From a virus: a stretch of 42,774 nucleotides of DNA. The position numbers and the translations under genes were made by a program. The notes under the pieces were generated by a model that saw only the letters and a list, made by a program, of their open reading frames with translations, was not told the origin of the DNA and ran no database searches. The stretch covers positions 1 through 42,774 of IMG/VR virus record IMGVR_UViG_3300031372_000018. One strand, given 5' to 3'. Each line of letters starts with the position of its first letter. The first letter of the stretch is position 1. Positions 2,815-38,643 of the stretch are shown here, piece after piece.

Positions 2815-4202
2815 TCAGTAGCGCCGATGCCGCCAAGGAGCTTCTGAGGCGTCGGCAGGCGCGCAAGTCCCTTCTGTCATTCATCTGCTACATCAACCCC
2901 GAATACATCGTCAGCGACTTCTCGATCATGGTCTGCTCGGCCCTGGAGAAGTTCATAGCCGATTGCATGGAGGGAGTGCGTCCCGTCCTGATCCTTCAAG
3001 CACCGCCACAGCACGGCAAGTCGGACATCGTCTCGCGCTACCTGCCAGCGTTCGTGTTTGGTCACTACCAGGATCTGCGCATTGCTGGCCTGTCCTACTC
3101 CAAGGACTTGGCCACCGACATGAACCGTGATGTGCAGCGGATCATGATGTCGCCTGAGTATCACAAGCTATTCCCGGACTCTTCGCTCAATGCTAAGCGA
3201 GCCGTGCACGTCGACATCGAGGCCAAGCGCAACAGCGAGACATTCGAATTGGTTGGGCACAAGGGCACTTACGTCGGCCAGGGCGTTGGCGGCCCACTGA
3301 CTGGTAAGCGTGTCGACTTCGGCATCATCGATGATCCCATCAAAAACTCCAAGGAAGCGCTGAGCCCCGCCATCAAGGATTCGATCTGGAAGTGGTACGG
3401 TTCGACCTTCCTGACCCGCCTGAGCAAGAATGCAGGCCACATCATCATGGCTACTCGTTGGGCCACTGACGACCTTTCAGGCCGAGTGCTGGCTGCCAAC
3501 GCTAAGGCAAGGCTACTGAGCTTTCCTGCCATCGATGTCGCTGGCAATGCGCTTATTCCCGAGCTGCATCCTGCCGATAAGCTGCTAGAGACCAAAGAGG
3601 TCATTGGTGATTACTTCTGGTCGGCCATGTACCAGCAGTCGCCTAAGACCATTGGTGGCGCGATCTTCAAGGATGAGGGTGTCAGGTACTACCTGCCCAA
3701 AGATCTACCGACCAAATTCGACAAGATCATCCAATCCTGGGACATGACCTTTAAGGACTCGGAAGGCACAGACTATGTTGCGGGCCAGGTTTGGGCAAAA
3801 CTTGGGTCGAACGTCTACCTTATCGATCGCAAGAAGGAGCGCATGTCGTTCACCAAGTCCAAGCAGGCAGTAGTTGATATGACGGCCAGGCATCCCCAGG
3901 CAATGCGCAAGCTGATCGAAGACAAGGCCAATGGCCCTGCTATCATTGACTCGCTCAAGAATGAGATCCACGGCATAATCCCGGTAGAGCCAGATGGCAG
4001 CAAGATAGCTCGCGCGCACGCTGTGACAGCTGTGTGGGAGGCTGGCAACGTATGGCTACCACATCCTGACATCGCGCCATGGGTTAAGGAATTCGTCGAC
4101 GAAGTGACAACCTTCCCCGCAGGCGCGCACGATGACGAGGTTGATGCCATGACGCAGGCGCTGCGAGACCTGTATAGTGCCAAGCGTGGATTCTTCGGTT
4201 AA
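2811..4202 (+). CDS. terL: Terminase large subunit
   Basis: 463 aa. Walker A-like QAPPQHGKS, Walker B-like VDFGIIDDP, and the C-terminal nuclease acidic motif AGAHDDEVDAMTQAL. Confidence 0.9.
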   Translation: MISSADAAKELLRRRQARKSLLSFICYINPEYIVSDFSIMVCSALEKFIADCMEGVRPVLILQAPPQHGKSDIVSRYLPAFVFGHYQDLRIAGLSYSKDLATDMNRDVQRIMMSPEYHKLFPDSSLNAKRAVHVDIEAKRNSETFELVGHKGTYVGQGVGGPLTGKRVDFGIIDDPIKNSKEALSPAIKDSIWKWYGSTFLTRLSKNAGHIIMATRWATDDLSGRVLAANAKARLLSFPAIDVAGNALIPELHPADKLLETKEVIGDYFWSAMYQQSPKTIGGAIFKDEGVRYYLPKDLPTKFDKIIQSWDMTFKDSEGTDYVAGQVWAKLGSNVYLIDRKKERMSFTKSKQAVVDMTARHPQAMRKLIEDKANGPAIIDSLKNEIHGIIPVEPDGSKIARAHAVTAVWEAGNVWLPHPDIAPWVKEFVDEVTTFPAGAHDDEVDAMTQALRDLYSAKRGFFG

Positions 4203-5725: not shown

Positions 5726-5940
5726 TGTCGAAGATTAATGATGGTGGTTGTGCATTTCCGTGTGAAACCTCGATGTATGCATCGTCAGGCAGGGGCATGT
5801 CTCTGTGGGATTACTTTGCGGGCAAGGCGATGCAGGGCATCTGTGCTCACGCTGACACCTGGGGTTTGAGCACCAACGAAAATATTGCGACAGCTTCTTA
5901 CGATCTGGCCGACGCCATGCTTGCGGAGCGCGCAAAATGA
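5725..5940 (+). CDS. Conserved small phage protein, function unknown
   Basis: ATG 5725 overlaps the portal stop (GTGATG), with a GAGGGGG RBS. The GGCAFP and GMSLWDYFAGKAM motifs recur in small phage proteins I recall. Confidence 0.7.
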   Translation: MSKINDGGCAFPCETSMYASSGRGMSLWDYFAGKAMQGICAHADTWGLSTNENIATASYDLADAMLAERAK

Positions 5941-6197
5941 AATATCTAAATATCGAGTCCGATAGGTTTTCATGCGCGAGCAGTTCGCATACTCGCGAAG
6001 ATCACCATATAGAGCTTGTAGTTGAGGTTGATCAGAGCGCGGTCATCAATCAATTCACAGCCAAGGAGATCGTATCTTCTTTTGACATCGGTTCCCTGCT
6101 CGATGAGATCGGCATGTCGATTGCTCTTGAGCATTATGCGGGTCTTGGCAATATCACCATGGAAGACTTCCGCAGTATTCTGGAGCGTGCGAAATGA
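5937..6197 (+). CDS. Hypothetical protein
   Basis: 86-aa track ORF with ATGA overlaps to both neighbours. Confidence 0.65.
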   Translation: MKYLNIESDRFSCASSSHTREDHHIELVVEVDQSAVINQFTAKEIVSSFDIGSLLDEIGMSIALEHYAGLGNITMEDFRSILERAK

Positions 6198-6457
6198 TCG
6201 CGCACACGCCTGGTTCTTGGTACTGGGACTTTGACCGTGACGGGTTGGCAAGCCTTAGATCGGATGCTGGCGATGGAGAGCCCATCATGATTGATATTGG
6301 CCTCTGCCCTGGAGTTGAGGATCGAGCGCTGATCGCCGCCGCGCCGGATCTGCTGGAGGCTTTGGAGAATCTTGAAAATGATGCCGGTCAGATCCCTGAC
6401 GATGCATGGAAGATCGTCAAGGATGCCATCGCCCGCGCAAAAGGAGAGCAACCATGA
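6194..6457 (+). CDS. Conserved small phage protein, function unknown
   Basis: 87 aa. The HTPGSW and LIAAAPDLLEALE motifs are common in phage proteins of unknown function (recalled). Confidence 0.7.
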   Translation: MIAHTPGSWYWDFDRDGLASLRSDAGDGEPIMIDIGLCPGVEDRALIAAAPDLLEALENLENDAGQIPDDAWKIVKDAIARAKGEQP

Positions 6458-6615
6458 TCGACCTAACCCCATACGCCACCTATACAGGCCTTGCACTGGA
6501 CAAGCTAGGCGCCGACCTTGAGTTGCCAAGGCACTTCGGCGAGTGCGATGGAAGCTATCGAGGCCGGATGATCGCCAGGCTTGTGCGGAATATCCAGGCG
6601 AGCACTGATGCCTAA
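6454..6615 (+). CDS. Hypothetical protein (53 aa)
   Basis: ATG 6454 overlaps the upstream stop (ATGA), in frame with track ORF 6406..6615. Confidence 0.5.
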   Translation: MIDLTPYATYTGLALDKLGADLELPRHFGECDGSYRGRMIARLVRNIQASTDA

Positions 6616-7486
6616 GAAAATCCGCCTAACCCGCAAGCGACTTCAGTGGGCAGAACCCCGGGCGGCAACGCTCAGGGGTTCGCCATTGGTCGCTCCTGCA
6701 GCCACCGCAGCGAAGTACTCAGCCGAACTTGAGCGCATGGTCCAGGCTATGCGCAAAGAGTACGACAGTGAGCTGCGTGGGCTGTTTAAGCAGTTGGGCT
6801 CGCAGATTGGTCCAGATACCCTGGCGCAGGATGCTAGCCTTGCGAGTCAGGCGCGGATCTTGTTCTCGTGGTTGTCGACCAAGTACGCAAAGCTGTTTGC
6901 GTCCAGGGCGTCGACCATCACCGAGCGCATGATCAGTGGCGCCTCCAAGGCAAGCCAGGTGCAGCTTGGCGAATCGCTCAAGAAGATCAGTGGTGGGCTG
7001 ACCATCAAGGTTGCGGACATGCCAGGTGATCTTGCAGATCGGCTGACTGCATCGACCGCCGAGAATGTCGGGCTGATCAAGTCCATCCAGGCGCAGTACC
7101 ACGAGAAAATCTCGCAAACGGTTCTTCGATCGATCCAGGCGGGCGGCAATGGTTCGCAGGACATCTTTGAGCAGATCCGGCACATAGATGGCGTCACCGA
7201 AAATCGGGCGAAGTTAATTGCTATCGACCAGACTCGCAAGGTCACGACAGCGATGAATGTCGAGCGCGCGGCTTCGGCGGGAATCAAGAAGTTTGAGTGG
7301 CTGCACTCAGGCGGCGGTGCTGATCCGCGAAGGCTACATCTCGACTACGATGGGCAGATCTTCGACTACGACAAGCCGCCTGTGATCGATGAGCGGACTG
7401 GTGAGCGTGGGTATCCAGGGCAGCTACCCAATTGCAGATGCGCCATGATTCCGGTTATCTCTTTTGGAGAAGAAGAGAATGGCTAG
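6608..7486 (+). CDS. Head morphogenesis protein, Mu gpF / SPP1 gp7-like
   Basis: 292 aa from ATG 6608. The C-terminal GYPGQLPNCRCAMIPV is typical of Phage_Mu_F minor head proteins. The gene lies in the portal-proximal position. Confidence 0.8.
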   Translation: MPKKIRLTRKRLQWAEPRAATLRGSPLVAPAATAAKYSAELERMVQAMRKEYDSELRGLFKQLGSQIGPDTLAQDASLASQARILFSWLSTKYAKLFASRASTITERMISGASKASQVQLGESLKKISGGLTIKVADMPGDLADRLTASTAENVGLIKSIQAQYHEKISQTVLRSIQAGGNGSQDIFEQIRHIDGVTENRAKLIAIDQTRKVTTAMNVERAASAGIKKFEWLHSGGGADPRRLHLDYDGQIFDYDKPPVIDERTGERGYPGQLPNCRCAMIPVISFGEEENG

Positions 7487-7673
7487 CAAACAGACGCTGA
7501 AGATGCAGCAAGAGATCCTTGCCAAGGTTTATGAGCTTATTGGCAGGGAATTCCCCGATCCGGCAAAGCTGGTTTGCAATGCCGTGACGATCACTATCGA
7601 GGCTGATGAGCGCGGTCTATTTGTAGACGTGAAAGAACGACTGATGCCTATTGAGCCTGCTACTGATGAGTGA
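7479..7673 (+). CDS. Hypothetical protein (64 aa)
   Basis: ATG 7479 follows GAAGAAGAG and overlaps the Mu-F-like stop. It is the last ORF before the ORF-free region. Confidence 0.6.
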   Translation: MASKQTLKMQQEILAKVYELIGREFPDPAKLVCNAVTITIEADERGLFVDVKERLMPIEPATDE

Positions 7674-8162
7674 TAGTATCAAAGCCATGCTTCTGGCATA
7701 TGAGCCAACTTCGTAAAGTTTGCCCGGTGTAGACCTCCTGCACCACTCGCCAAGGGCGCGATACGATGAATATGCAAGCCTGGGCCAAGTCATGCTGGTA
7801 TCCTCGCCAGTGGCGAAAGAGGGGAAAAGATCAGGGCCCGCAGACGCGGATCGTCTTTATCGGAAAGCCCCGAGTACCGGAGTACAGCGGCTAAACCCAA
7901 CGGACTAACCAAACGTCATGCGGGGCTTTACCGATGCAGATGTAGCGAAAGCCAGATAGACTGACGAGCTTAGTCGTTCCAATGGACGATGCAGGATGAT
8001 GGGCGGTTCAACACCTCCAGCTATGACTCAGATCTCAATCCTGTGCATTTGTGTCAACGGTGAATAGTTCAACTCGCATTGCGCAGAGTCAGCGCCAACC
8101 AGGTATTGGCGAGCTAACCTGATCTGGCACAGGCACCGTGTAGGACTGTCGAAAGGCAGTAG
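7674..8162 (+). ncRNA. Candidate structured non-coding RNA or leader of unknown class
   Basis: About 490 nt with only one track ORF of 60 aa or more (7720..7908, TTG start, no RBS). Local hairpins sit at 7804-7816 and 8093-8111, and a GAAA-loop hairpin at 8145-8160. A 12-14 bp long-range helix pairs 7859-7872 with 7921-7935. The stretch ends at a strong intrinsic terminator. Confidence 0.3.
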
Positions 8163-8190
8163 GCCCAGCCCTAAACCAGCTGGGCTTTTT
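8163..8190 (+). terminator. Rho-independent terminator
   Basis: GCCCAGC (8163-8169) pairs with GCTGGGC (8179-8185) around a 9-nt loop, followed by TTTTT (8186-8190). Confidence 0.8.
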
Positions 8191-8209
8191 CATGCCCACC
8201 GAAAACCAT

Positions 8210-8238
8210 TTGACACCCGATAGTTACTATCCTATAGT
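8210..8238 (+). promoter_or_regulatory. Sigma70-like promoter with palindromic operator (cassette 1)
   Basis: TTGACA (8210-8215), 17-nt spacer, TATAGT (8233-8238). The spacer contains the perfect inverted repeat GATAGT-T-ACTATC (8219-8231). Confidence 0.75.
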
Positions 8239-8265
8239 CCTCCTACCACCAGAGAGGACACCATC

Positions 8266-8484
8266 ATGCAATACAATCAGCTCGATCAAGACAGGCGCAC
8301 TGAGAAGGCTAATCTGACCATTGCTCAATGCATCCAGCGCTCCAGCAATCCCATCCAGGCATCGATCGCGAGCTTCGTTCGCCGAGAGATCAACCTGCAC
8401 GAAAAGACCTTCTTCTTCGAAGACGGCAGCTTCATCAAATTCAATGTGACCTATACGGTTTCGGGTACGGGGGTGGCGAAATGA
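8266..8484 (+). CDS. Hypothetical protein (72 aa)
   Basis: First ORF after the promoter, with RBS AGAGAGGA. Confidence 0.65.
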   Translation: MQYNQLDQDRRTEKANLTIAQCIQRSSNPIQASIASFVRREINLHEKTFFFEDGSFIKFNVTYTVSGTGVAK

Positions 8485-8524
8485 CTATGCGCGTCGGTGG
8501 GCTTTGGGAATGCGAGGTGGCGGT

Positions 8525-8707
8525 ATGACCGGCAAGAAGTGGTTCTATTGGCTGGGCAAGCTTCACGCAACGCGCGACCTTGGCCGGTACCCCCATTGCA
8601 GCTGGCCCGATTGGGCTTGTGAGGCATACGTCGAGGGCTGGGTAGAAGGTTTCTACATGGACGCCTCGCAGCGTCTGGCGTTTTGCAGAGCAGGAGAAGG
8701 GAAATGA
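8525..8707 (+). CDS. Hypothetical Trp/Cys-rich protein (60 aa)
   Basis: ATG 8525 with a GAGGTGG RBS, in frame with track ORF 8504..8707. Confidence 0.55.
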   Translation: MTGKKWFYWLGKLHATRDLGRYPHCSWPDWACEAYVEGWVEGFYMDASQRLAFCRAGEGK

Positions 8708-9099
8708 GTTTATCTGACGAGATTCAGCTGCCACGACTTGATAGCCTGGCTGATATCCCATACGCCCAGGAAGCCCCAGCCAGCTGGGACCCGGACTATC
8801 GGAAAATATGGCAAGAGCTTCAGGTGGCGAACCGCAATAAGACCCAGCTCGGCGGACACATCCGGGAGCTTCGATCAAGGCTTTCCCAATCGATCGCCCA
8901 GCGCGATGAAGGGTTGGCGCGGGAGGCGGAGTTGGTCGAGGCTCTGCGACAGGCGAAATGCCACATCGCCAACGCCCAGTTCGCACTGAGCAAGGGAAAT
9001 CCAAGCCATGGCTGGCTGCCACATATTCGCCAAGGCCTGTACGAAGCAAAGGCATCGCTGGCTAAACACGGCTGCGCGGATGGGGAGAAGGCGGAATGA
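8704..9099 (+). CDS. Hypothetical coiled-coil protein (131 aa)
   Basis: ATG 8704 (ATGA overlap) with RBS GGAGAAGGG. Heptad-like helical sequence. Confidence 0.65.
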   Translation: MSLSDEIQLPRLDSLADIPYAQEAPASWDPDYRKIWQELQVANRNKTQLGGHIRELRSRLSQSIAQRDEGLAREAELVEALRQAKCHIANAQFALSKGNPSHGWLPHIRQGLYEAKASLAKHGCADGEKAE

Positions 9100-9374
9100 A
9101 AATAGCGATATTGGGGATGGGTAATCCTAGCGTTAGGGTCTCGGCAATCATCGAAGAGCTAAATAAACAGTGGCCTGGCGCTGAAATTGTTTTTGTCGAC
9201 GAGACGGACGAAGTAAGCATGGCCGACATCAAGGGCGACGCATTTGATGCGATTGCGCTGCATGAAGCGCCCATTATCCCACCCTACCTGGGCCAGTTCG
9301 ATCACAACTACGATGGGATTAGGCGTAAAGGTAGGGGCGAACGCAAACGCAATAAATCTAACAGGTGGCGATAA
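9096..9374 (+). CDS. Hypothetical protein with basic C-terminal tail (92 aa)
   Basis: ATGA coupling at the start. The N-terminal MKIAILGMG looks like a beta-alpha-beta start. The tail is RRKGRGERKRNKSNRWR. Confidence 0.65.
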   Translation: MKIAILGMGNPSVRVSAIIEELNKQWPGAEIVFVDETDEVSMADIKGDAFDAIALHEAPIIPPYLGQFDHNYDGIRRKGRGERKRNKSNRWR

Positions 9375-9469
9375 TGACCATCCCACGCAAAACCCTTATC
9401 GGCGCCACACTGGCAAGTCTGTGCATGTGGGCCGTCGGCTACGCAGCCTGGCAGGCGGTGTTCTCATGA
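9374..9469 (+). CDS. Micro-ORF, single-pass membrane peptide (31 aa)
   Basis: My own translation is MTIPRKTLIGATLASLCMWAVGYAAWQAVFS. It has a TAATG overlap upstream and an ATGA overlap downstream. It is below the ORF-track length cutoff. Confidence 0.45.
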   Translation: MTIPRKTLIGATLASLCMWAVGYAAWQAVFS

Positions 9470-9789
9470 GCGAGCTGACCATTATAGGCCTGCAGTCCTT
9501 GGTAGCCTCTCTGCGACACGAGCTGAAGCTTGTGAAGGCTCAGCGCGATCGGCTGATGGATGCTAAACCAAGACCAAAAATTAAGCCTCTAATTGAGGTC
9601 GGCACCAAGAGAGATGGCGCAGTTATCACTGCGCACAATTGCGGCCTTCATGTGCTCAAGTGCCGCTGTGGCGCCATATTCCGCAGGGGACGAGAGGCGC
9701 TCATAAAGGATCAACCCTGGCGCTGTAAGACCTGCGTCAACGACAACCACAGGGCAAACACGCTAGAAACAATGGCGGAAATGAAATGA
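9466..9789 (+). CDS. Hypothetical protein with C-terminal Cys cluster (107 aa)
   Basis: ATG 9466, in frame with track ORF 9244..9789. It has a coiled-coil N-terminus followed by HNCGLHVLKCRCG...WRCKTC, which may be a zinc ribbon. Confidence 0.6.
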   Translation: MSELTIIGLQSLVASLRHELKLVKAQRDRLMDAKPRPKIKPLIEVGTKRDGAVITAHNCGLHVLKCRCGAIFRRGREALIKDQPWRCKTCVNDNHRANTLETMAEMK

Positions 9790-9974
9790 CATACGATCAT
9801 TGGAACACTGCCGACATCCTTCCGCCGGTCGGATGCCCGATAGTTGTTATGCGCGCCGATGGGCCCGCGAAAGCCGAGCGAGTGGCGCACATCTCGAAGA
9901 AGGATCGACTGATGGAGTATCGGATGGAGGATGGTGAAGTGGTGCTGGGGCGATTACCTTGGACCTATCCATAA
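9786..9974 (+). CDS. Hypothetical protein (62 aa), DUF551-like by recall
   Basis: ATGA coupling. The WNTADILPPVGCPIVVM segment resembles a small phage domain I recall as DUF551. Confidence 0.55.
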   Translation: MTYDHWNTADILPPVGCPIVVMRADGPAKAERVAHISKKDRLMEYRMEDGEVVLGRLPWTYP

Positions 9975-9976
9975 GA

Positions 9977-10006
9977 GAGGGCGCCATTGCGGCGCCCTTC
10001 TTGCTT
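9977..10006. terminator. Bidirectional intrinsic terminator between convergent genes
   Basis: GGGCGCC (9979-9985) pairs with GGCGCCC (9991-9997), with T-rich runs on both strands. It sits between the stops at 9974 (+) and 10007 (-). Confidence 0.7.
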
Positions 10007-11044
10007 CTACCACAGGACCTCTTGGCCTCCGCTGTAGGCGAATGTTGGGGAGCCTGCAGTGTTCACCGTTCGGATCCTGACGTACTTGCCTGCAGGAATG
10101 AATGCGTTCAGCGGCACCGTCTGCACTGTGTTCGCATTGAGCACCCCGCCCACTCCGCTCGTGCCCGAGAACGCCTGCACAAGGTTTGTAGTCATGGCTG
10201 CGTTGTCAGCGTATTCGAGGATGACTGTGCCGCGTGATCCTGCGACCAGCAGCGCGGTTACCGTCACGTCTACGCCATAGTAGACCGTTGCGGGTCTTGT
10301 GGCGCTGAGCTGGAAGGCCGTGTTCAGTGGGCGGGTTGCTGGCGATGCAGACGGTGATATTGCAGGACCCTGCGGCCCGATTGCGCCTGTTGCGCCTGTG
10401 TCGCCCTTATCGCCTTTCGGGCCAGTAGCGCCTTGAGGTCCTGCAACAGTGCTTGCAGGACCCATAGCTCCGGTTGCGCCCGTATCACCTTTCGGTCCAG
10501 GGATTCCTTGCGGACCCATCGCGCCCGTCTCGCCCCTTGCTCCAGGGTCTCCCGTAAACCCTCTAGGTCCGACCTGGCCATCTGGGCCTACAGGACCAGC
10601 TGCGCCCGTGCTACCAGTTGGGCCTACTGCGCCTTGCGGTCCAGTATCGCCCCTGTCACCCTTGGGTCCGGTATCCCCTTGAGGCCCTTGAGGCCCCGCA
10701 ACGCCTTGCGCCCCATTCGAACCGTTTGAGCCTGGATCTCCCTTAGGGCCTTGCGCTCCAGTGTCACCTTTAGGTCCTGCCTCACCCTGCTGGCCTGGAT
10801 CGCCATTCATCCCGGTAGGTCCGCGCGGGCCAGCCATGCCGTCGTTGCCGGGGTCCCCTTTGTCACCTTTTGCGCCACGATCTCCCTTTTCACCTTGTGG
10901 TCCAGCTGGCCCGGTATCACCCTTCGGACCTGCTGGCCCGACATTCTCAGCGGTATCAGTCCGCTCTTCGAGGATTGCGATTCGCTCACTAAGATCCGAC
11001 ATCTCATCCTGGGAAACGCCAGGGTCGTGAATTGTGCCGGTCAT
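10007..11044 (-). CDS. Collagen-like triple-helix repeat protein with globular C-terminal domain
   Basis: 345 aa. A short N-terminal coiled coil (LSERIAILEERT) is followed by about 54 uninterrupted G-X-Y triplets, a 4-residue break, and about 9 more triplets (hand count). A beta-rich C-terminal domain of about 115 aa follows. Confidence 0.85.
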   Translation of the reverse strand: MTGTIHDPGVSQDEMSDLSERIAILEERTDTAENVGPAGPKGDTGPAGPQGEKGDRGAKGDKGDPGNDGMAGPRGPTGMNGDPGQQGEAGPKGDTGAQGPKGDPGSNGSNGAQGVAGPQGPQGDTGPKGDRGDTGPQGAVGPTGSTGAAGPVGPDGQVGPRGFTGDPGARGETGAMGPQGIPGPKGDTGATGAMGPASTVAGPQGATGPKGDKGDTGATGAIGPQGPAISPSASPATRPLNTAFQLSATRPATVYYGVDVTVTALLVAGSRGTVILEYADNAAMTTNLVQAFSGTSGVGGVLNANTVQTVPLNAFIPAGKYVRIRTVNTAGSPTFAYSGGQEVLW

Positions 11045-11316
11045 GATGGAGTGTCCGCCTGGATGTAGAGTCGAAGGCCCATTGAGCAGCGGATGAAGCA
11101 GCCAGGCACCCCTTCGTCGACAATGAATTCCGAATCAGCCTTTGTGCGCCTGCCGAAGGTTTCGGATGCTGGTGGTTTCTGTGCAGTCCTTCGCGTCAGC
11201 ACCAGCCCGCTGGATTGGTTCTGGCACTGTAGCCTGGTGCCAACCGGAACCTTGGCTAGCTCGTATAGATCCTGCCAGCCGGTGATCTGGTTAATGATTA
11301 TGTGCTCGCTGGACAT
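11041..11316 (-). CDS. Hypothetical protein co-transcribed with the collagen-like gene (91 aa)
   Basis: Track ORF whose stop overlaps the collagen-like start (ATGA). Confidence 0.6.
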   Translation of the reverse strand: MSSEHIIINQITGWQDLYELAKVPVGTRLQCQNQSSGLVLTRRTAQKPPASETFGRRTKADSEFIVDEGVPGCFIRCSMGLRLYIQADTPS

Positions 11317-11387
11317 GGCGTCCCTTCCGATGGTGTGGGTTCTGGCGAAGTATAAATTCTGAGCAGTCGACCGTCTATCGAAAGGGG

Positions 11388-11416
11388 TTGCGGTGCGATA
11401 GTTATTATCTTATAGT
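11388..11416 (+). promoter_or_regulatory. Sigma70-like promoter with operator-like near-palindrome (cassette 2)
   Basis: TTGCGG (11388-11393), 17-nt spacer, TATAGT (11411-11416). The spacer contains GATAGTTATTATC (11397-11409), which is one mismatch from the 8219-8231 palindrome. Confidence 0.7.
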
Positions 11417-11451
11417 CTGATCATCGAAACGAACCGTAGAGGGCTCAACCG

Positions 11452-11649
11452 ATGAACGCAGCATCCTTCGCAAGCAAAGAAGTAACCCGCCGCGCAGTGC
11501 AGATGTGCTACGACCTGGCCCATGCAGACTTCAAGTGGTATCGCGAATTCCGCAAGATGGGCGACCTGCGCTATGCAGAATTGAGCCTACGTTCCGGCAT
11601 GGAGTATCGCGCCAAGGGCAAGCAGGTCATGCGCGAGGCTCAGCGGTGA
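11452..11649 (+). CDS. Hypothetical protein (65 aa)
   Basis: First ORF after the promoter, with RBS GAGGG. Confidence 0.65.
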   Translation: MNAASFASKEVTRRAVQMCYDLAHADFKWYREFRKMGDLRYAELSLRSGMEYRAKGKQVMREAQR

Positions 11650-11969
11650 AGCGCATCCCGGCAGAGATTGCTAGCCTCATGGCTGATCAATACAGGTCGG
11701 GGCGAACGGCGGCGCAGATTTCAGCGTCAACCGGATTCTCTCCGGATGCAGTCCGCTATCATCTGCGCAAATCGGGATGTTTCGTCTACGGCAGAGATCG
11801 AGCAAGCAGGATCACGCCAGAGTTTGCGGCTGCAGCGCTAAAGATGCATCGAGGCGGCATATGCTGGAAGAGTGTCGCTCGTCTGCTGGGGTTCAATACT
11901 CAGGTGTTACAGGTCGAGGCCTGGAAATATAGAGACTCACAAATCAATCAAGAGAGGGAAAGGAAATGA
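11646..11969 (+). CDS. DNA-binding protein with two HTH-like segments (107 aa)
   Basis: GTG 11646 overlaps the upstream stop (GTGA). The HTH-like segments are SGRTAAQISASTGFSPDAVRYHLRKSG and GGICWKSVARLLGFNTQVLQVE. Confidence 0.55.
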   Translation: MKRIPAEIASLMADQYRSGRTAAQISASTGFSPDAVRYHLRKSGCFVYGRDRASRITPEFAAAALKMHRGGICWKSVARLLGFNTQVLQVEAWKYRDSQINQERERK

Positions 11970-12514
11970 AACTAATAGACATTTTGGCGCGCGAGTTGAA
12001 GGAGTGGCCGAAAGGTTTTGATGATGTTGGTCAGGCAGATAGCGGAGCTTTACATCTACCCGGAATAGGTATGCATGAGAAGCATACAGATGAAACCTAC
12101 ACTCATGCCGATGATTGGTTTACATCCATCGTCACCCGCGCCCAATGGCAAGCCGCAGTCGATGCGCTGAAGGCGGATGAGCAGCCAGCATTTATTCGGG
12201 AGGGGCTGCCTAATATCGGAACGACCTGCGAAGGCCGTGTAAAGAATGGCGGCGATTGGCGCACCTACACGGTCAAGGCAATGTCCACTGAATATCTTAT
12301 TGTCTGGTGTGAAGAAGACCTGGCTGAAACTCCTATTCGCCACTCTTACTGGGAATTTCGCCCCATCCGCACCGCCGAGCAGATCGCGGCGGAAGAGCGC
12401 AGCAAGGCTATTAGCACGATGGTGGATGCTTGCAGCAATCCTGAGTGGGTAACCACGTACGAGACGTGCGCGGCCATCTACGACGCTGGCTACCGCAAGC
12501 AGGTGCAGCCATGA
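11966..12514 (+). CDS. Conserved phage protein, function unknown (182 aa)
   Basis: ATGA coupling. The N-terminal MKLIDILARELKEWP and C-terminal IYDAGYRK motifs recur in Pseudomonas-type phage proteins I recall. Confidence 0.7.
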   Translation: MKLIDILARELKEWPKGFDDVGQADSGALHLPGIGMHEKHTDETYTHADDWFTSIVTRAQWQAAVDALKADEQPAFIREGLPNIGTTCEGRVKNGGDWRTYTVKAMSTEYLIVWCEEDLAETPIRHSYWEFRPIRTAEQIAAEERSKAISTMVDACSNPEWVTTYETCAAIYDAGYRKQVQP

Positions 12515-12846
12515 GATTGACGCGCAATCAGCAGGCGGTGCTAAATGAGCTTCGCAAGATCGGTCGCGAGAACTTCTACCGCTATCGAGAGAGCAGTTCG
12601 CACCTGTACGAGGAGAATCGGCTGCGTATTGCCAAGGGCGATCAGTTTTGCGCGCATGGCTTGGGTGGCTTGTCATATCAGGTTGGATATCGCCTGAATA
12701 TGACAGCCGGTGCGGTGCTAAGCATCTTTAAGGCACTTGAGCTCAAAGGGTTGGTGCTTCGCGAAACTTATAATCCTGGCTATCAACGCCCACTCTATTG
12801 GTGGCCGGTTGGCCTGGCCGAAGAATTGAGTGAGGTGCAGCCATGA
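12511..12846 (+). CDS. Possible winged-helix protein (111 aa)
   Basis: ATG 12511 (ATGA overlap). The segment AGAVLSIFKALELKGLVLRE is winged-helix-like. Confidence 0.55.
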   Translation: MRLTRNQQAVLNELRKIGRENFYRYRESSSHLYEENRLRIAKGDQFCAHGLGGLSYQVGYRLNMTAGAVLSIFKALELKGLVLRETYNPGYQRPLYWWPVGLAEELSEVQP

Positions 12847-12998
12847 CCTGGCTCCTCGTCCTGGCTATAAACTACGGCTCAGCTACCCTAGGCCCGACCG
12901 AATTCCCAACCGAGCGCTCCTGCATTGCTGCGGGCGAGTCTCGGCGGTATATGGGTAAGCCGGTTCAGTTTGTCTGTAAGGAGATTCGCAATGTATGA
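12843..12998 (+). CDS. Micro-ORF with hydrophobic N-terminus (51 aa)
   Basis: My own translation is MTWLLVLAINYGSATLGPTEFPTERSCIAAGESRRYMGKPVQFVCKEIRNV. ATGA overlap upstream and ATGTATGA overlap downstream. Confidence 0.45.
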   Translation: MTWLLVLAINYGSATLGPTEFPTERSCIAAGESRRYMGKPVQFVCKEIRNV

Positions 12999-13176
12999 CA
13001 TCGGGTATAAGATTCTTCTGACAAGCGCATTATTCTTCGTGATTTTTCTTTTGGTGGGATTGCTGGCGACAAGCAAGCCAAGGCAGCCAAAGGTGGTAGA
13101 TACGTGTGCATCAGTGGTTACGGTTTGCTTTTTTGGGATTATTGCCGGATTCCTTATGATGATATGGGGCAGATAA
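12991..13176 (+). CDS. Small membrane protein, two TM segments (61 aa)
   Basis: ATG 12991 with an AAGGAG RBS. Hydrophobic segments are ILLTSALFFVIFLLVGLLA and VVTVCFFGIIAGFLMMIW. Confidence 0.6.
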   Translation: MYDIGYKILLTSALFFVIFLLVGLLATSKPRQPKVVDTCASVVTVCFFGIIAGFLMMIWGR

Positions 13177-13412
13177 TGGCTATCAACTTCCACCTAACCC
13201 CAGTCATCGGCATCTTCAAGGTGCCCAAGCGAGCCAGCCAGGAGCGCATCGAGACTGACGCCCAGCGCAAGATCTCTGAGCTGAGCGAGAACAGCGTCAA
13301 GGCTGGCGGGAATGGGTATCGATTCGTGCGCATGGACGACGGGTATGCTATCGCCGAAGAGGTTGGGTCGACGCGGACGGTGGCGTATCAGGTTCACTAT
13401 GGGATGAGTTGA
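13176..13412 (+). CDS. Hypothetical protein (78 aa)
   Basis: ATG 13176 (TAATG overlap), in frame with track ORF 13104..13412. Confidence 0.6.
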   Translation: MAINFHLTPVIGIFKVPKRASQERIETDAQRKISELSENSVKAGGNGYRFVRMDDGYAIAEEVGSTRTVAYQVHYGMS

Positions 13413-13413
13413 G

Positions 13414-13605
13414 ATGGAAACGATATCTGGAGCGGGCAGGTCGGACGCCTATATTTTGGGATTCAATACCCCGCTATGTAGTGAGGACGACAACCCTTGG
13501 ACGCTTTGCAGTGAGAGCGGACATGACTGGCTTGAAGGCCAAATGGATAGGGAGAGAGCTTGCGATCAATTGGGATGGGATAGCGTCCCGGTAATGGTTA
13601 AGTAG
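13414..13605 (+). CDS. Hypothetical acidic protein (63 aa)
   Basis: ATG start. Preferred over the overlapping TTG-started frame at 13409. It ends inside the terminator stem. Confidence 0.45.
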   Translation: METISGAGRSDAYILGFNTPLCSEDDNPWTLCSESGHDWLEGQMDRERACDQLGWDSVPVMVK

Positions 13606-13627
13606 CCCGCGCATTGCGGGCTTTTTC
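13604..13627 (+). terminator. Rho-independent terminator
   Basis: AGCCCGC (13604-13610) pairs with GCGGGCT (13616-13622), followed by a TTTT run. Confidence 0.8.
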
Positions 13628-13656
13628 TTGCCCCCTGAAAATCACAGTGATAGACT
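13628..13656 (+). promoter_or_regulatory. Possible promoter for the capsid/tail operon
   Basis: TTGCCC (13628-13633), 17-nt spacer, TAGACT (13651-13656). Confidence 0.4.
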
Positions 13657-13687
13657 CAATGCATTGACAATCAAGGCTCAATGCAAA

Positions 13688-15016
13688 ATGCCTAAAGAAT
13701 CGACTCGCTCGATTGACCATAACGGCTTCATGCTGATTCGGGATAACCCTATCTCGAAGATCGGCGTATACCCGTACTTGGGCAGCGAGATCCCGGTTCC
13801 AGGCCTTGAGCCGAACAAGATCTATGGCGTTTACCGTTCCGCCGAGGAGCTTGGCGATCAGGCAGCAATCGACTCATTCAAGCTGCAGCCCTTTATCGAT
13901 GACCATGAGGTGCTAGGCCAGGGCGGCACTCCAGCCGAGCGCAAAGGCATTCAAGGCTACATGGGCGAGCAGATCCACTTCGATGGCACCTACCTGCGCG
14001 GCAACATCAAGATCCCATCGAGCGCGGCTCAGTCGCTGATCAGCGCAGGCAAAACCGAGCTATCCCCCGCATACCGCTGCAAGTGGGTGCCGGAAGAAGG
14101 ATCGTTTGGCGGTAAGCCCTACCAATTTACGCAGCGTCAAATACGCGGAAACCACTTGGCCTTGGTAGATGAGGGCCGAACCGGTCCAGATGTTGCCATC
14201 CAAGACAGTGCTGTAATGCTTAACGACCCACACATGTCCATGACCCTAGATAGCGCGGAGCTAATCAATATGGAATTCACCCCAGAGCAACTGGCACAGA
14301 TCGAGGCGATGCTCGCTAAGATGATGGCCGCCAAGACTACCGGGGATGAAGACCCGGCAGAACAACCAAGCGAAGATGCAGACTCCGTGGTGGAGCCGAT
14401 GGTCGAGGTCACTCCTGAGCAGGAAGATGCAGCTCAAGAGACCGTCGCTGCTGCCTCCGAGGCTGAGAGCGCGCTGGAAGCTGCAAGCGAAGCCCTGGCT
14501 GAAGTTGCCGCCGCTGCCGAGCAGGTGGTTGCCACCGACTCGAAGGATAAGGTCAAGCAGCAGGCTGCCAAAACCAAGTTGGCGACCGCCAAGGCTAAGC
14601 ACGCCAAGCTCCAAAAGGTAGCCACCGACTCGGTCGCCAAGCTGCGCACCGTGAACGACAAGTCCGGCGTCGCCGCAGACCGAGCCATCATCAAGCAACT
14701 GCAAGCCCAGATCGCCGAGCTGAGCAAGCCTCCTGTCGCCCTGGACTCCAGTAAGCTGATGGCCGAGATCGCCGATCGTGATGCCCTGGCAGGCCAACTC
14801 TCCAAGTTCGTCGGCTCGTTTGACCACTCGCGCATGACCTGCGATGCAGTGGCTCAGTACGGCGTCGAAAAGCTGGGTCTGAAGACCGCCAAAGGTACCG
14901 AGCGCATCGCTCTGAACGCCTGGATGCATGGCCGCAAGCCTGACCACGAAACCATCCACATTGCTTCCGATTCCAAGAAGACCGGCAGCGCATTGCAAGC
15001 ATGGGGTAAAAAATAA
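13688..15016 (+). CDS. Scaffolding protein (DUF2213-like N-terminal domain; possible protease role)
   Basis: 442 aa from ATG 13688. The N-terminal half is globular. The second half is Ala/Glu/Lys-rich and helical (AAQETVAAASEAESALEAASEALAEVAAAAEQ...). It lies immediately upstream of the capsid genes. Confidence 0.65.
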   Translation: MPKESTRSIDHNGFMLIRDNPISKIGVYPYLGSEIPVPGLEPNKIYGVYRSAEELGDQAAIDSFKLQPFIDDHEVLGQGGTPAERKGIQGYMGEQIHFDGTYLRGNIKIPSSAAQSLISAGKTELSPAYRCKWVPEEGSFGGKPYQFTQRQIRGNHLALVDEGRTGPDVAIQDSAVMLNDPHMSMTLDSAELINMEFTPEQLAQIEAMLAKMMAAKTTGDEDPAEQPSEDADSVVEPMVEVTPEQEDAAQETVAAASEAESALEAASEALAEVAAAAEQVVATDSKDKVKQQAAKTKLATAKAKHAKLQKVATDSVAKLRTVNDKSGVAADRAIIKQLQAQIAELSKPPVALDSSKLMAEIADRDALAGQLSKFVGSFDHSRMTCDAVAQYGVEKLGLKTAKGTERIALNAWMHGRKPDHETIHIASDSKKTGSALQAWGKK

Positions 15017-15483
15017 TGCCTATTCCAAATAGCGTTGCCAACGAGATCGTCTCGGGCATTCCTGGCGAACTGGCGTTCGACGGTCCTACCCGCGCCCTGG
15101 CTGCTCTGATCGTGTCCGGCACCGAAGCCAACAACGTGTTCGGTCGAGCCTTCACCTATGCCGACGAAGCTGTCGAGACCGTGCAGGCTGGCGGCACAGG
15201 CGGTTTCGCGGGTATCATGATCAACCCCAAGGCCTATGCCCTGGAAACCGACTACGCCCGCAACAGCACTGCTGGCGAGTTCCTGTTCATGGGTGAGGTC
15301 TACGTCGAGCTGGCCACGACCGGCGCAACCATCGGCGACCTGGTGTACTTCACCAACGCCACTGGCGCACTGGGTCACGGCACTGCGGGCGCAGGCCAAA
15401 CTCAGATCCCGAACGCGGTCGTGTCTCGCCACAACGTCTCGCCGCAAACCCCAACCCTCGCCGTCATTAAATTGACCAACTAA
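15016..15483 (+). CDS. Head decoration / cement-like protein (by position)
   Basis: 155 aa, TAATG coupling, located between the scaffold and major capsid genes. The call rests on position and composition only. Confidence 0.45.
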   Translation: MPIPNSVANEIVSGIPGELAFDGPTRALAALIVSGTEANNVFGRAFTYADEAVETVQAGGTGGFAGIMINPKAYALETDYARNSTAGEFLFMGEVYVELATTGATIGDLVYFTNATGALGHGTAGAGQTQIPNAVVSRHNVSPQTPTLAVIKLTN

Positions 15484-15494: not shown

Positions 15495-16556
15495 ATGCAA
15501 TCTAAAGAGCATTTCTACCTGAGCGGTCGCGAAGCCCTGGCGCGCGGTCCACTCGCACTGGATAGCAATTCCGAGATCAGCATGCGCGATCTCCAGACCA
15601 TCGGTATCAACCTGGTGGCAATGGATACCGCGCTGACTGGTCCCGCTGCTACTGGCGGCAACATCCGTGGTCATTTCCTCGAAGCGGTACTGCCTGGCAT
15701 GGTTCGCCTGCTGACCCGCGTGCGCACCATCGACGAAATCACCGGCATGATGAACATCGGCAACTGGTACGACGACCAGATTCTGCAGAACGTTGCGGAT
15801 TCGGTCGGCAAGGCCGAGCTGTACGGTGACACCACCAACATCCCGCTGGCCAGCTACAAGCAGACCCTGGAGCGTCGCAACATCCAGCGCTTCGAACAAG
15901 GCTTCATGGTCGGCAAGCTGGAAGAGGCACGCCAGTCTGCAGGCGGCTACGATGCCACCGCAGAGAAGCGCCGCTCGGCCATCGAGTCGCTGGAGATCAG
16001 CCGGAACCGCATCGGCTTCTACGGCTTCGGCGCACCGAACAGCCGGACCTATGGTCTGCTGAACGATCCTTCGCTGGCTGCCTACGAGACCGCTACCACC
16101 TCTTGGCTGGGTGCCGCATTCTCGGTAATCACTGGCGACATTCAGGCGATGTTCGATGACCTCGAACTGCGCTCGGGCGGCAACATCAAGGACGATACTC
16201 AGCTGGTGATGGTTCTGCCTACCGGCTACCGTGGTGTCTTGGCTACCGCCAACACCTCGGCGCGCGGCGAGACCGTTCGCCAGTGGATCGAAGAGAACTT
16301 CCCGAACGTTCGCTTCGTGTTCGCCCCAGAGTTCGTCGGCGCAAACGGTGGTGCCAACGTGGCTTACCTGTTCGCCGAGAGCGTTGATGGCGGTGACGGT
16401 GAAGGTGGTCGCACCCTGGTGCAACTGGTGCCCACCAAGTATCAAGTACTGGGCAGCGAGAACCGCATCAAGGGCTACATCGAAGACGCCACCAACGCCA
16501 CTGCAGGCGTGATGGTCCTCCGTCCTTGGGCCGTGACCCGCATCACTGGCATCTAA
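15495..16556 (+). CDS. Major capsid protein (DUF2184 / HK97-fold type by recall)
   Basis: 353 aa with an AAGGA RBS. Position after the scaffold and size are typical. Confidence 0.75.
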   Translation: MQSKEHFYLSGREALARGPLALDSNSEISMRDLQTIGINLVAMDTALTGPAATGGNIRGHFLEAVLPGMVRLLTRVRTIDEITGMMNIGNWYDDQILQNVADSVGKAELYGDTTNIPLASYKQTLERRNIQRFEQGFMVGKLEEARQSAGGYDATAEKRRSAIESLEISRNRIGFYGFGAPNSRTYGLLNDPSLAAYETATTSWLGAAFSVITGDIQAMFDDLELRSGGNIKDDTQLVMVLPTGYRGVLATANTSARGETVRQWIEENFPNVRFVFAPEFVGANGGANVAYLFAESVDGGDGEGGRTLVQLVPTKYQVLGSENRIKGYIEDATNATAGVMVLRPWAVTRITGI

Positions 16557-38626: not shown

Positions 38627-38643
38627 TAACTTACCTCTCTGAT

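Follow-up and report, generated by a model that had tools for sequence, protein, structure and literature searches.

A multi-unit accessory island at the Mu-F/DUF2213 junction of a myophage head module

Mu-like Pseudomonas phages have their acr region flanked by the Mu G homologue on one side and the protease/scaffold gene on the other (PMC3993853). In every Aca family, the acr-aca operons have consensus-like promoters whose core contains an inverted repeat (PMC9410906). A moron has been defined as a group of genes with its own expression that, by comparison with relatives, has been inserted into an operon (PMC2629481). We analyzed a viral record of 42,774 nucleotides (hereafter, the window), which represents a ~42.6 kb myophage with E217/Pam3-type head and tail genes, probably of Pseudomonas. 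At the junction of its Mu-F-like head morphogenesis gene and its DUF2213 protease/scaffold gene we found an island of ~6.2 kb, containing ~18 small genes together with a gene for a collagen-like fibre and an RNA of conserved structure (Table 1). The initial annotation had equated this position with that of the acr region, and the description of the Mu-like phages bears this out.

Table 1. Features of the island, its flanks and the related site in the early region.
Feature	Position	Strand	Basis or match
Mu-F-like head morphogenesis gene, 292 aa (left flank)	6608-7486	+	collection gene call; PF04233 1.7e-13; phrog_324 1.3e-75
g01, 64 aa, no homologues found	7479-7673	+	coding score 0.447 vs -0.108 in best other frame
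ORF-free spacer	7674-8057	+	negative coding score, all frames
Conserved structured RNA motif, ~105 nt	8058-8160	+	covariation, covariance model
Predicted intrinsic terminator of Mu-F/g01/RNA transcript, 9-bp stem then U-run	8161-8192	+	fold
27-nt direct repeat, left copy GGGCTTTTTCATGCCCACCGAAAACCA	8182-8208	+	repeat family D7
Cassette 1 promoter, TTGACA-17-TATAGT; perfect palindrome GATAGTTACTATC (8219-8231) fills spacer	8210-8238	+	11/12 consensus matches
Cassette 1, seven coupled small genes	8266-9974	+	collection gene calls; called frame best-scoring in every case
g02	8266-8484	+	
g03	8525-8707	+	
g04	8704-9099	+	
g05	9096-9374	+	
g06, probable membrane peptide	9374-9469	+	hydrophobic sequence
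g07, probable coiled coil and Cys-rich C-terminus	9466-9789	+	sequence
g08	9786-9974	+	
Bidirectional terminator hairpin between converging cassette 1 and reverse operon	9977-9999	.	fold
g09, 345 aa	10007-11044	-	collagen PF01391 1.4e-30
g10, 91 aa, first gene of reverse operon	11041-11316	-	phrog_4770 (unknown function) 2.4e-7
Candidate reverse-operon promoter, TAGACG-17-TATACT	11349-11377	-	weak consensus match, 9/12
Cassette 2 promoter, TTGCGG-17-TATAGT; operator GATAGTTATTATC (11397-11409) in spacer	11388-11416	+	
Cassette 2, eight coupled small genes	11452-13605	+	collection gene calls, coding scores
g11	11452-11649	+	
g12, two HTH-like repeats; start called by us	11646-11969	+	weak HTH matches
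g13	11966-12514	+	phrog_3483 4.6e-26
g14, probable winged helix	12511-12846	+	family profile
g15	12843-12998	+	
g16, probable membrane protein	12991-13176	+	hydrophobic sequence
g17	13176-13412	+	
g18	13414-13605	+	weak coding signal
Predicted intrinsic terminator of cassette 2	13604-13622	+	-13.7 kcal/mol, z = -3.1, then U-run
27-nt direct repeat, right copy GGGCTTTTTCTTGCCCCCTGAAAATCA	13618-13644	+	repeat family D7
DUF2213 head-maturation protease/scaffold (right flank; head module resumes)	13688-15016	+	PF09979 1.4e-44; phrog_3778 1e-98
Third operator/promoter copy GATAGTTGCTATCCGATAGT, early region, outside island	40714-40733	-	upstream of 70-aa ORF 40670-40458

The gap between the Mu-F and DUF2213 genes (7487-13687) measures 6,201 bp, whereas the same pair lies 0-200 bp apart in ~20 distant relatives, confirming the earlier claim that the two are normally adjacent and are split here. 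The spacing is 63 bp in Lbo-JY16 and 85 bp in KLEP17-4, it is <100 bp or the genes overlap in the Bordetella IFTN phages, Stenotrophomonas B2 and Vibrio V039C, and it is 3-210 bp in 12 of the 17 relatives from IMG/VR and metagenomes. The exceptions are L050, with a ~470 bp (~0.5 kb) insert holding one 129-aa ORF, and L005, L006 and L049, with a ~1.5 kb insert holding one 499-aa ORF. Because these smaller inserts occupy the same junction in two other lineages, the junction is a recurrent insertion point. The island itself is a true insertion, with no counterpart in any of the relatives examined. Downstream of the DUF2213 gene follow those for a cement protein and the major capsid protein.

The island comprises five units, namely g01 with the ORF-free and RNA stretch, cassette 1, a reverse operon (11316-10007, - strand), cassette 2, and the terminators insulating each unit. 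All four elements named in the initial annotation (the ORF-free stretch, the two cassettes and the reverse collagen operon) are present, as are the promoters it gave at 8210 and 11388, the terminators near 9980 and 13604 and the eight coupled ORFs of cassette 2; its seven or eight ORFs of cassette 1 proved to be seven. Promoters and terminators were called as consensus matches, and these support the view that each unit would be autonomous, with its own sigma-70-type promoter and terminator. A scan of the region returned 4 promoter-like sites against 4.1 expected, so that the argument depends on two sites being of high quality and duplicated. The cassette 2 promoter is identical to that of cassette 1 at 20 of 22 positions (repeat family D10), and the core promoters of both cassettes contain a 13-bp palindromic operator, GATAGTnACTATC, of which a third copy lies in the early region. 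Allowing at most one mismatch, the palindrome occurs only at these three promoter sites, and the 20-nt promoter motif GATAGTTAYTATCYTATAGT occurs three times against 0.00 expected. The earlier proposal that the cassettes share the TATAGT hexamer and the operator with the early replication promoters holds for the hexamer, but the operator matches at only 10 of 13 positions at the replication promoter near 38674 (-), and the third copy, in the early region, precedes a 70-aa ORF, not the replication operon. The related suggestion, that the cassettes may be early accessory genes embedded in the late region, is supported.

One reading of this arrangement, which we consider unlikely, is that the cassettes encode inhibitors of CRISPR-Cas or other defences, with strong promoters driving them early until an Aca-like HTH protein (g12 or g14) binds the palindrome and represses them. 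The position of the island, its small, fast-evolving orphan genes, the HTH-like proteins of cassette 2 and the near-consensus promoters, whose core holds an inverted repeat as it does in every Aca family (PMC9410906), are consistent with such a locus, and an operon of phage D3 joins a g13 relative to a Lar-like anti-restriction gene. However, apart from the collagen match of g09 (PF01391), no island protein matched Pfam, NCBIfam, PADLOC or any PDB sequence, the last including solved Acr, Aca and other anti-defence proteins; in these collections no product matches a known anti-defence protein, and no known Aca family is found among the products. In addition, neither g12 nor g14 reaches the threshold as an HTH protein (the g14 family profile matches the winged helices of IclR, MarR and SlyA with E-values of 0.01-0.4, each time in one and the same stretch). 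In other genomes, homologues of g14 do not take the promoter-proximal place of an autoregulator and come without the operator. No HTH gene is present in cassette 1, and 18 genes are far above the size of a typical acr operon. An anti-defence role of the island remains an analogy with the acr region.

Several of the island genes, and the RNA motif, belong to a wider accessory gene pool. The g13 protein has 843 homologues and no Pfam domain, and its predicted model (pLDDT 91.9) contains a central beta-barrel weakly resembling SH3/Tudor/KOW-type folds, with no PDB match better than E = 2e-3 or TM 0.3. In phage D3, a member of this family (orf65) lies in the cI-adjacent leftward operon that contains the Lar-like restriction-alleviation gene, and g14 homologues are found in accessory operons of phage contigs and of a prophage in L066. 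In cassette 1, the first 68 residues of g04 align at 70% identity with the central portion of Pseudomonas DUF4406 proteins, g08 has homologues in the P. putida phages Dolphis and Jeremy and in Marinobacter phage PS6, and the other genes have no detectable homologues.

Upstream of cassette 1, g01 overlaps the Mu-F stop by 8 nt and is therefore translationally coupled to Mu-F and presumably expressed late; it has no match in Pfam or PHROG. The following stretch (7674-8265) scores negative for coding in every frame. Its previous description as ORF-free and structured applies fully in the first respect, while structure is confined to the 3' part, the whole being no more stable than shuffles (z = -1.16). 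The spacer contains no tRNA and no Rfam match, but a 41-nt block (7828-7868) is 90% identical to part of a 945-bp ORF-free region of Pseudomonas phage Touem01. The RNA motif that follows is built of helix P1 (8058-8062 with 8134-8138), P1a, hairpins P2, P3 and P4, and a 3' GAAA-loop hairpin (8145-8160). A 27-mer from it was found in 28 IMG/VR contigs, Medea1 and three genomes, giving 32 sequences in which 98.1% of alignment cells are paired (~30% in slid controls). Six pairs changed in a compensatory way, whereas shuffles averaged 1.0 +/- 0.9 such pairs and none of 500 reached the observed value, and G.U wobbles are seen on the + strand only. The covariance model detects a single copy at 105.7 bits, and Rfam 15 contains nothing like it. 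The terminator and GAAA hairpins together (8146-8196) fold at -20.4 kcal/mol (z = -2.47), and a homologous terminator lies 3' of the motif in L021. Several loci have a cI-like gene ~2.5 kb upstream of the motif, four (L011, L025, L030 and L035) have g13 homologues 1-2 kb downstream of it, and in Medea1 a g13 homologue, the motif and a tRNA share one operon near cI; in Touem01 (L012), the g13 homologue is upstream of the ORF-free region. The g13 and g14 families, and likewise the RNA motif, sit in the kind of accessory operon, early or close to the immunity genes, that temperate Pseudomonas phages carry.

We therefore favour, as a reasonably probable account, a mosaic moron-type accessory region that accumulated at the recurrent insertion point. 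Late transcription would enter from upstream and pass through Mu-F and g01, the non-coding tail, the RNA motif and the terminator, so that the transcript end might yield a 3'-UTR-type or free small RNA. Given near-consensus sigma-70 promoters, host RNA polymerase should fire the cassettes as infection begins or while the phage is in a carrier state, and one phage DNA-binding protein, acting on the shared palindrome, should shut off both cassettes together with the early-region promoter. Candidate repressors are the KorB/ParB-like and YdaS/Cro-like early proteins or g12 and g14 of cassette 2; the operator was linked to no specific protein and was not found beside g14 homologues elsewhere. The cassette products may be host-interaction proteins, as in the accessory operons of temperate Pseudomonas phages, with possible roles in takeover, exclusion or counter-defence; most have no homologues at all, and this is therefore argued from context. 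The hairpins would insulate the units (the one at 9977-9999 folds at -20.5 kcal/mol with z = -4.3 on the + strand, and at -19.8 kcal/mol with z = -4.1 on the - strand). Late transcription could get to the protease/scaffold and capsid genes only by passing these hairpins or by starting anew, and no late promoter or antiterminator was identified that would explain expression of the capsid genes, which lie 3' of three terminators.

Alternatively, the island could be a lysogenic-conversion cluster, expressed from a prophage or plasmid prophage and benefiting the host by superinfection exclusion, surface change or adhesion and not in the lytic cycle, to which we attach a low probability. It fits the moron definition (PMC2629481) with a promoter and terminator for each unit, the small predicted membrane proteins g06 and g16 look like exclusion factors, the collagen protein with its TNF/C1q-like part has similarities to bacterial surface proteins such as BclA and BxpB, and the ParB/KorB-like gene could serve a plasmid prophage. 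Against this, the gene calls include no integrase or obvious lysogeny module, making a prophage-expressed role uncertain; the operator shared with an early lytic-type promoter suggests repression rather than constitutive expression; and the RNA motif, which was the sole query here, not the phage, was found only three times among genome representatives of 185,579 species.

The reverse operon tempers the earlier statement that none of ~17 products matches a family with a nameable function: most others lack homologues, but g09 is a recognisable fibre protein. The stop of g10, which has a homologue in Pseudomonas phage MR14, overlaps the g09 start (ATGA). A short N-terminal segment of g09 is followed by Gly-X-Y collagen repeats over ~190 aa and, at the C-terminus, by a knob of 110 aa with a TNF/C1q-like jelly-roll fold. 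The AlphaFold2 model of this knob (pLDDT 90.4, pTM 0.82) matches TL1A, TNF, the C1q head, BxpB and a TNF-like lectin in Foldseek (probability 1.0, TM 0.5-0.6). The protein matches tail-fibre PHROGs, and its knob phrog_28908/31472; the same knob forms the end of two further proteins, one of 742 aa from the tail-fibre cluster of Erwinia phage Bue1 and one of 306 aa from the Orisa phages. The g09 product is probably a trimeric fibre, a collagen stalk with a TNF/C1q-like knob, which would most likely serve as an accessory virion fibre or adhesin. Tail-fibre proteins of other phages carry this knob as their distal domain, so this part of the island probably has a structural or adhesive function and not one in anti-defence. 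It also lends something to the quite improbable idea that all island genes are lineage-specific morphogenesis or virion components (head decoration, fibres, assembly chaperones), made late with the head operon and with only fortuitous promoter-like sites, as do the homologous knob proteins in structural modules of other phages, the location inside the head module and the coupling of g01 to Mu-F. Yet no relative that builds the same head has these genes, the duplicated 22-nt promoter-operator is not fortuitous, the units are bracketed by terminators, the operons in which g13, g14 and the RNA motif are found in other genomes are accessory and non-structural, and the fibre operon lies on the opposite strand.

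That the island is an assembly chimera or decaying, non-functional DNA is highly improbable even though it is known from metagenomes alone, most of its ORFs are orphans and g12, g16 and g18 score weakly for coding, because it was assembled independently in four sample sets (two ENA assemblies, one JGI metagenome and one Logan run) at 99.91-100% identity with junctions included, which rejects an assembly artefact, 19 of the 22 ORFs score positive and best in the called frame, many with a visible Shine-Dalgarno-like sequence and start/stop codon overlap, and the regulatory signals are intact. The 5.4 kb block of cassettes is flanked by the two copies of the 27-nt direct repeat, identical at 23 of 27 positions; this is the best non-collagen repeat of the region, and none of 60 Markov simulations reached 23 (maxima 19-21).

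The first and last 127 bp of the window (1-127 and 42648-42774) are identical, as expected of a circular assembly built with k = 127, and the true genome length is thus 42,647 bp, in a circular assembly. A gene for an AAA_25 helicase-like protein spans the junction of the two ends. The window is identical to the ENA contig ERZ23216721 NODE_862 and is matched at 99.91-100% identity by partial independent assemblies (ERZ23140466, JGI 3300026472, and Logan SRR8490882). Because the same sequence was assembled in separate sample sets, the window is not a chimera. No close relative was found in IMG/VR and the JGI metagenomes, where the best proteins had ≤ 52% identity, and none of 50,697 phage records matched the region in a megablast search.

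We compared the head module with those of the nearest relatives, whose proteins are merely 40-53% identical: Leptolyngbya phage Lbo-JY16, the Bordetella vB_BaM-IFTN phages, Pseudomonas phage KLEP17-4, Stenotrophomonas B2, Vibrio V039C, and 17 environmental loci from IMG/VR or metagenomes. The portal, Mu-F, DUF2213 (protease/scaffold), cement, and capsid genes are contiguous in the relatives, apart from the Mu-F/DUF2213 junction of the environmental loci L050, L005, L006, and L049. The distance across this junction is 63 bp in Lbo-JY16, 85 bp in KLEP17-4, and < 100 bp or an overlap in the remaining cultured phages; for 12 of the 17 environmental loci it is 3-210 bp. The same two genes lie 6,201 bp apart in the window, which bears out the proposal of the initial annotation that an accessory island splits them. 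The exceptions carry other cargo: L050 has an insert of ~470 bp with one 129-aa ORF, and L005, L006, and L049 have ~1.5 kb with a single 499-aa ORF containing TPR-like repeats (at 10890-12389 in L049, where its C-terminal region looks glycosyltransferase-like, by eye only). That other lineages have different cargo here implies repeated uptake of foreign DNA at this junction, and suggests that the boundary between Mu-F and protease/scaffold serves generally as a landing site and deserves to be mined. A smaller insert, of 882 bp (5725-6608), also separates the portal from the Mu-F gene, two genes that overlap or abut in relatives. Homologues of its first ORF occur in L025, L030, and L033, three loci with the RNA motif described below, and its third ORF, 6194-6457, carries the annotation PF27050, Phage_P22_Y8K6.

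We took the gene calls that accompany the public contig, added a codon-usage score that had been trained on the core genes, and arrived at 18 island genes: g01 next to the Mu-F gene, g02-g08 in cassette 1, g10 and g09 in a reverse-strand operon, and g11-g18 in cassette 2. The island thus comprises 6.2 kb, ~18 genes, and roughly 15% of the genome. Among the 22 small ORFs scored (these 18 and the four in the portal/Mu-F gap), 19 score positive and best in the called frame; the weak scores are those of g12, g16, and g18.

Features of the island, the head module, and the early control region
Feature	Coordinates	Strand	Remark
Terminase large subunit	2811-4202		
Portal	4223-5725		
Portal/Mu-F insert, four coupled small ORFs	5725-5940, 5937-6197, 6194-6457, 6454-6615		
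Mu-F-like gene	6608-7486		
g01	7479-7673	+	overlaps the Mu-F stop
Non-coding tail	7674-8265		between g01 and cassette 1
Structured RNA motif	8058-8160	+	
Cassette 1 promoter, TTGACA-17-TATAGT	8210-8238	+	consensus 11/12
Cassette 1, seven genes	8266-9974	+	
Strong hairpin	9977-9999		folds equally well on both strands
Reverse operon	g10 11316-11041, g09 11044-10007	-	
Reverse-operon promoter	11377-11349	-	weak candidate
Cassette 2 promoter, TTGCGG-17-TATAGT	11388-11416	+	
Cassette 2, eight genes	11452-13605	+	
Cassette 2 terminator	13604-13622	+	
DUF2213 protease/scaffold	13688-15016		
Cement protein, E217/Pam3-type	15016-15483		
Major capsid protein	15495-16556		
ParB/KorB-like HTH gene	37727-38626	-	
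YdaS/Cro-like gene	38708-39226		divergent from the ParB/KorB-like gene

The edges of the island are cleanly marked by synteny, by terminators, and by a bracketing direct repeat. The top non-collagen direct repeat of the region is a 27-mer (8182-8208 and 13618-13644, 23/27 identical) that covers the 3' half of a terminator stem, continues through the U-run, and takes in the next 16 nt; none of 60 simulated sequences exceeded 21/27. What the pair encloses is precisely the two cassettes and the reverse operon between them, with a period of 5,436 bp. In the simplest reading of this repeat, the ancestral order would have been Mu-F, g01, RNA, terminator, leader, and protease, and a 5.4 kb block would then have entered via recombination at the terminator/leader sequence. 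As now arranged, three predicted terminators separate the upstream late genes from the protease/scaffold and capsid genes, whose expression may depend either on a terminator-resistant late RNA polymerase or on an unrecognised promoter in 13623-13687. Two copies of CTCAATGCA (13655-13663 and 13677-13685) abut the protease start codon, and a GATAG half-site lies at 13649-13653; together they could form an operator, regulatory or translational, for the head genes that resume here.

The two cassettes appear to share one control element. The spacer of the cassette 1 promoter holds the inverted repeat GATAGTTACTATC, with a second copy at 11388-11416, and the palindrome GATAGTnACTATC lies in the spacer of both cassette promoters, which are identical at 20 of 22 positions. 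The genome contains the 20-nt promoter motif three times (0.00 expected), with the third site in the early region (40714-40733, minus strand), upstream of a 70-aa ORF. The claim that both the operator and the TATAGT hexamer are common to the early replication promoters was right in spirit and over-stated: the hexamer is indeed shared and the third full site belongs to the early region, but the leftward replication-operon promoter (TTGATA-17-TATAGT, near 38674) carries only a 10/13 version of the operator, placed over the -35 element. The surrounding 38600-38730 is a divergent early control region with several GATAG half-sites related to the island operator. Candidate operator-binding proteins are the ParB/KorB-like HTH and YdaS/Cro-like proteins encoded there and the island proteins g12 and g14, none of which could be linked to the operator. 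All 65 other loci that were fetched, those with g14 homologues among them, lack it. A single 13-bp palindrome in two near-consensus promoters offers a simple regulatory handle and makes the cassettes easy to test.

The stretch upstream of cassette 1 had been described as ORF-free and structured. The first part holds, as the coding score of 7674-8195 is negative in every frame; the second holds for a conserved 3' motif with compensatory pairs, but the stretch as a whole is no better than shuffled sequence (z = -1.16 on the plus strand and -0.18 on the minus strand). Rfam scans of the window in gathering and E-value modes and tRNA/tmRNA scans returned nothing, and Rfam 15 at the gathering threshold gave 0 hits in the window, Medea1, and Touem01, the best sub-threshold match scoring 16.6 bits against a gathering score of 50. 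Two patches are conserved elsewhere, 8054-8140 (88.6% identical to Medea1) and 7828-7868 (90% identical to Touem01), and both fall in long ORF-free regions of these unrelated Pseudomonas syringae phages. Those regions, at 2277-3044 in Medea1 and 2237-3180 in Touem01 (770-945 bp), are unannotated, and may hold further undescribed RNAs. The 7828-7868 block has no exact match in IMG/VR, and a 27-mer from the 8054-8140 patch is present in 28 IMG/VR contigs. The ~100-nt core was rejected as a host gene fragment or an attP/attB core: only 3 of 185,579 species genomes, namely two of Pseudomonas and a gammaproteobacterial MAG, contain the patch 27-mer, and full tRNAs are adjacent in just 2 of the 29 motif-bearing loci scanned.

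We aligned 31 distinct copies of the motif (~100 nt, 92% mean column identity). RNAalifold and pair counts give a closing helix P1, an inner helix P1a enclosing the hairpins P2 and P3, a further hairpin P4, and a GAAA-type hairpin at the 3' end. Across the 31 pairs of this structure, 98.1% of the alignment cells are paired, compared with 29-34% in slid controls. Compensatory double changes occur at six pairs, a count that 0 of 500 shuffles reached, though at 92% column identity they represent few independent events. The alignment therewith argues for a structured non-coding RNA with compensatory support. One-sided changes give G.U pairs on the plus strand and would be A.C mismatches on the other, implying that the RNA is transcribed the same way as the genes on either side. 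With a covariance model, the window yielded one copy, and Touem01, D3, and the head-module relatives yielded none. Directly 3' of the motif, both the window and L021 have a homologous terminator; in most other motif-bearing phages an ORF begins 25-60 nt 3' of it. Elsewhere the motif sits in runs of small genes, at several loci with a cI-like gene ~2.5 kb upstream. It may be a regulatory RNA derived from a 3' UTR, an element for processing or stability, or one for read-through; a literature search on the motif gave nothing relevant. The motif is thus well conserved, has no Rfam family, and is present in at least 32 phage or prophage sequences. In five loci (L014, L019, L020, L031, and L033), a T-arm/acceptor-like tRNA fragment, GGGTTCGAATCCCTACCAAA, lies ~60-80 nt upstream of the motif; ARAGORN found no complete tRNA at these fragments, and only L021 and Medea1 have a full tRNA nearby.

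The island proteins matched nothing in Pfam, NCBIfam, PADLOC, or the PDB sequences except collagen repeats, and beyond collagen their PHROGs matches are to families of unknown function only. One of them, g13 (182 aa), belongs to a large, unnamed family (phrog_3483) with at least 843 homologues, mainly in Pseudomonas phages and prophages. Its model is confident, with a pLDDT of 91.9, but the fold search gave nothing informative: the PDB hits were weak, to barrels of the SH3/Tudor/KOW type, and those in BFVD were uncharacterised proteins. The D3 homologue, orf65, lies in a leftward operon 2.4 kb beyond cI together with a Lar-like restriction-alleviation gene; Medea1 has a g13 homologue and the RNA motif in one operon, and a homologue is near in four motif-bearing loci and in Touem01. 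The g14 family is small (17 representatives among 1.84 billion proteins), is found in accessory operons of phage contigs and one prophage, and has a profile with consistent but weak matches to IclR, MarR, and SlyA winged helices. g12 contains two HTH-like repeats, with weak matches only. In cassette 1, g04 has a 68-aa module common to Pseudomonas DUF4406 proteins and g08 has homologues in P. putida and Marinobacter phages; for the remaining proteins of this cassette, neither the cultured-phage records nor 5.8 billion proteins searched with a word filter gave a homologue. The ~15 orphan proteins form a short list to screen against Pseudomonas defence systems.

The collagen protein of the reverse operon, g09, matches PF01391 at 1.4e-30, with ~190 residues of Gly-X-Y (roughly residues 35-225), and ends in a 110-residue domain modeled as a TNF/C1q-type jelly roll (pLDDT 90.4, pTM 0.82). 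With this knob, Foldseek retrieved TL1A, TNF, the C1q head, B. anthracis BxpB, and a Photorhabdus TNF-like lectin (probability 1.0, TM 0.5-0.6, E ~1e-3). The knob family is small and unnamed, with 27 homologues at E ≤ 0.001 (counted as 90%-identity cluster representatives). It also ends a 742-aa protein of the tail-fibre cluster of Erwinia phage Bue1 and a 306-aa protein of the P. syringae Orisa phages, and ~206-aa knob proteins occur in structural modules of uncultured phages, in one case on the opposite strand. The modeled fold, together with the same knob at the end of the Bue1 and Orisa proteins, suggests that g09 is most probably a trimeric fibre with a binding knob, placed either on this virion or on the cell surface. 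The N-terminus of g09 has no attachment domain in common with other virion proteins. A Gly-X-Y stalk followed by a C-terminal jelly-roll knob is also the arrangement of C1q, Bacillus BclA/BxpB, and collagen-like phage tail fibres; one difference is that the g09 gene is on the reverse strand within the head module, at a distance from the tail-fibre genes that this phage has near 30 kb. Its lectin-like knob may affect host range.

One group of known systems that the island resembles is the moron clusters of lambdoid phages. The island sits between genes that are adjacent in relatives, has its own promoter and terminator, and must be crossed by late transcription, and judged by its sequence it would be a moron cluster as defined (PMC2629481). 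In P22, the ant moron/immI is a variable, independently expressed group in the late operon with promoters, repressors, a small RNA, and exclusion-type genes (PMC2629481), and the island likewise holds promoters, candidate regulators, and an RNA within a late operon. It differs in lacking homologues of ant, mnt, arc, and sieA, in lying in the head-assembly cluster rather than upstream of the tailspike gene, and in having a multi-helix structured RNA rather than a short antisense one. The phage also has the g13 and g14 families, the family of the first portal/Mu-F insert ORF (p5725), and the RNA motif in common with early or immunity-adjacent accessory operons, which are runs of small genes near cI, in temperate Pseudomonas siphophages (D3 and Medea1) and related prophages; in this unrelated myophage they have been moved into the head module and put under another promoter-operator pair. 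This distribution suggests that the island took part of its content from the gene pool of such early or immunity-adjacent operons in temperate Pseudomonas phages, and that a fibre gene was added to it.

It was in accessory regions wedged into conserved virion-gene clusters that anti-CRISPRs and other counter-defence genes first came to light. In Mu-like Pseudomonas phages, the acr region lies between the Mu G homologue and the protease/scaffold gene (PMC3993853), and the analogy of position drawn by the initial annotation stands, since by synteny the island is placed between conserved head-morphogenesis genes, directly 5' of the protease/scaffold gene. As in the acr region of the JBD30, DMS3, and D3112 group, the genes next to protease/scaffold are small and diverse. 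The promoters of acr-aca operons are strong, match the consensus, and have an inverted repeat within their core (PMC9410906), a design comparable with TTGACA-17-TATAGT and its spacer repeat. Unlike the Mu-like acr region, however, the island has Mu-F and the coupled g01 rather than a Mu G homologue as its left neighbour, is ~ten times larger with five units on both strands, and has an operator that is not private to one operon and is also found at a promoter elsewhere in the genome; the phage itself, which lacks a transposase and has E217/Pam3-type virion genes, is not Mu-like. No island protein matches a PDB sequence at E ≤ 1 or, collagen repeats aside, anything in Pfam, NCBIfam, or PADLOC, and the search for an Aca gave sub-threshold HTH/winged-helix matches for g12 and g14 and no match to a solved Aca structure or to a Pfam or NCBIfam family. 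With no known Acr and no recognised Aca, we filed the island as an accessory moron-type region.

By analogy, counter-defence activity of some cassette genes is plausible but unproven. We consider it rather unlikely that the whole is an undescribed, regulon-like counter-defence or takeover module in which two orphan-gene cassettes under one operator are coupled to a new class of phage structured RNA, the multi-helix motif of ~105 nt. If true, the module would be novel, with an operator used in the early region too and an RNA spread through Pseudomonas phage accessory operons. The RNA motif could itself be the active element, either in late read-through of the island terminators or as a decoy or regulator against a host system. 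In the early region, a 72-aa protein (40899-41117, minus strand) has weak matches (E = 2e-4 to 1e-2), under the curated cut-offs, to families of the zinc-ribbon type and of the DnaJ-CXXCXGXG/anti-TRAP-like type.
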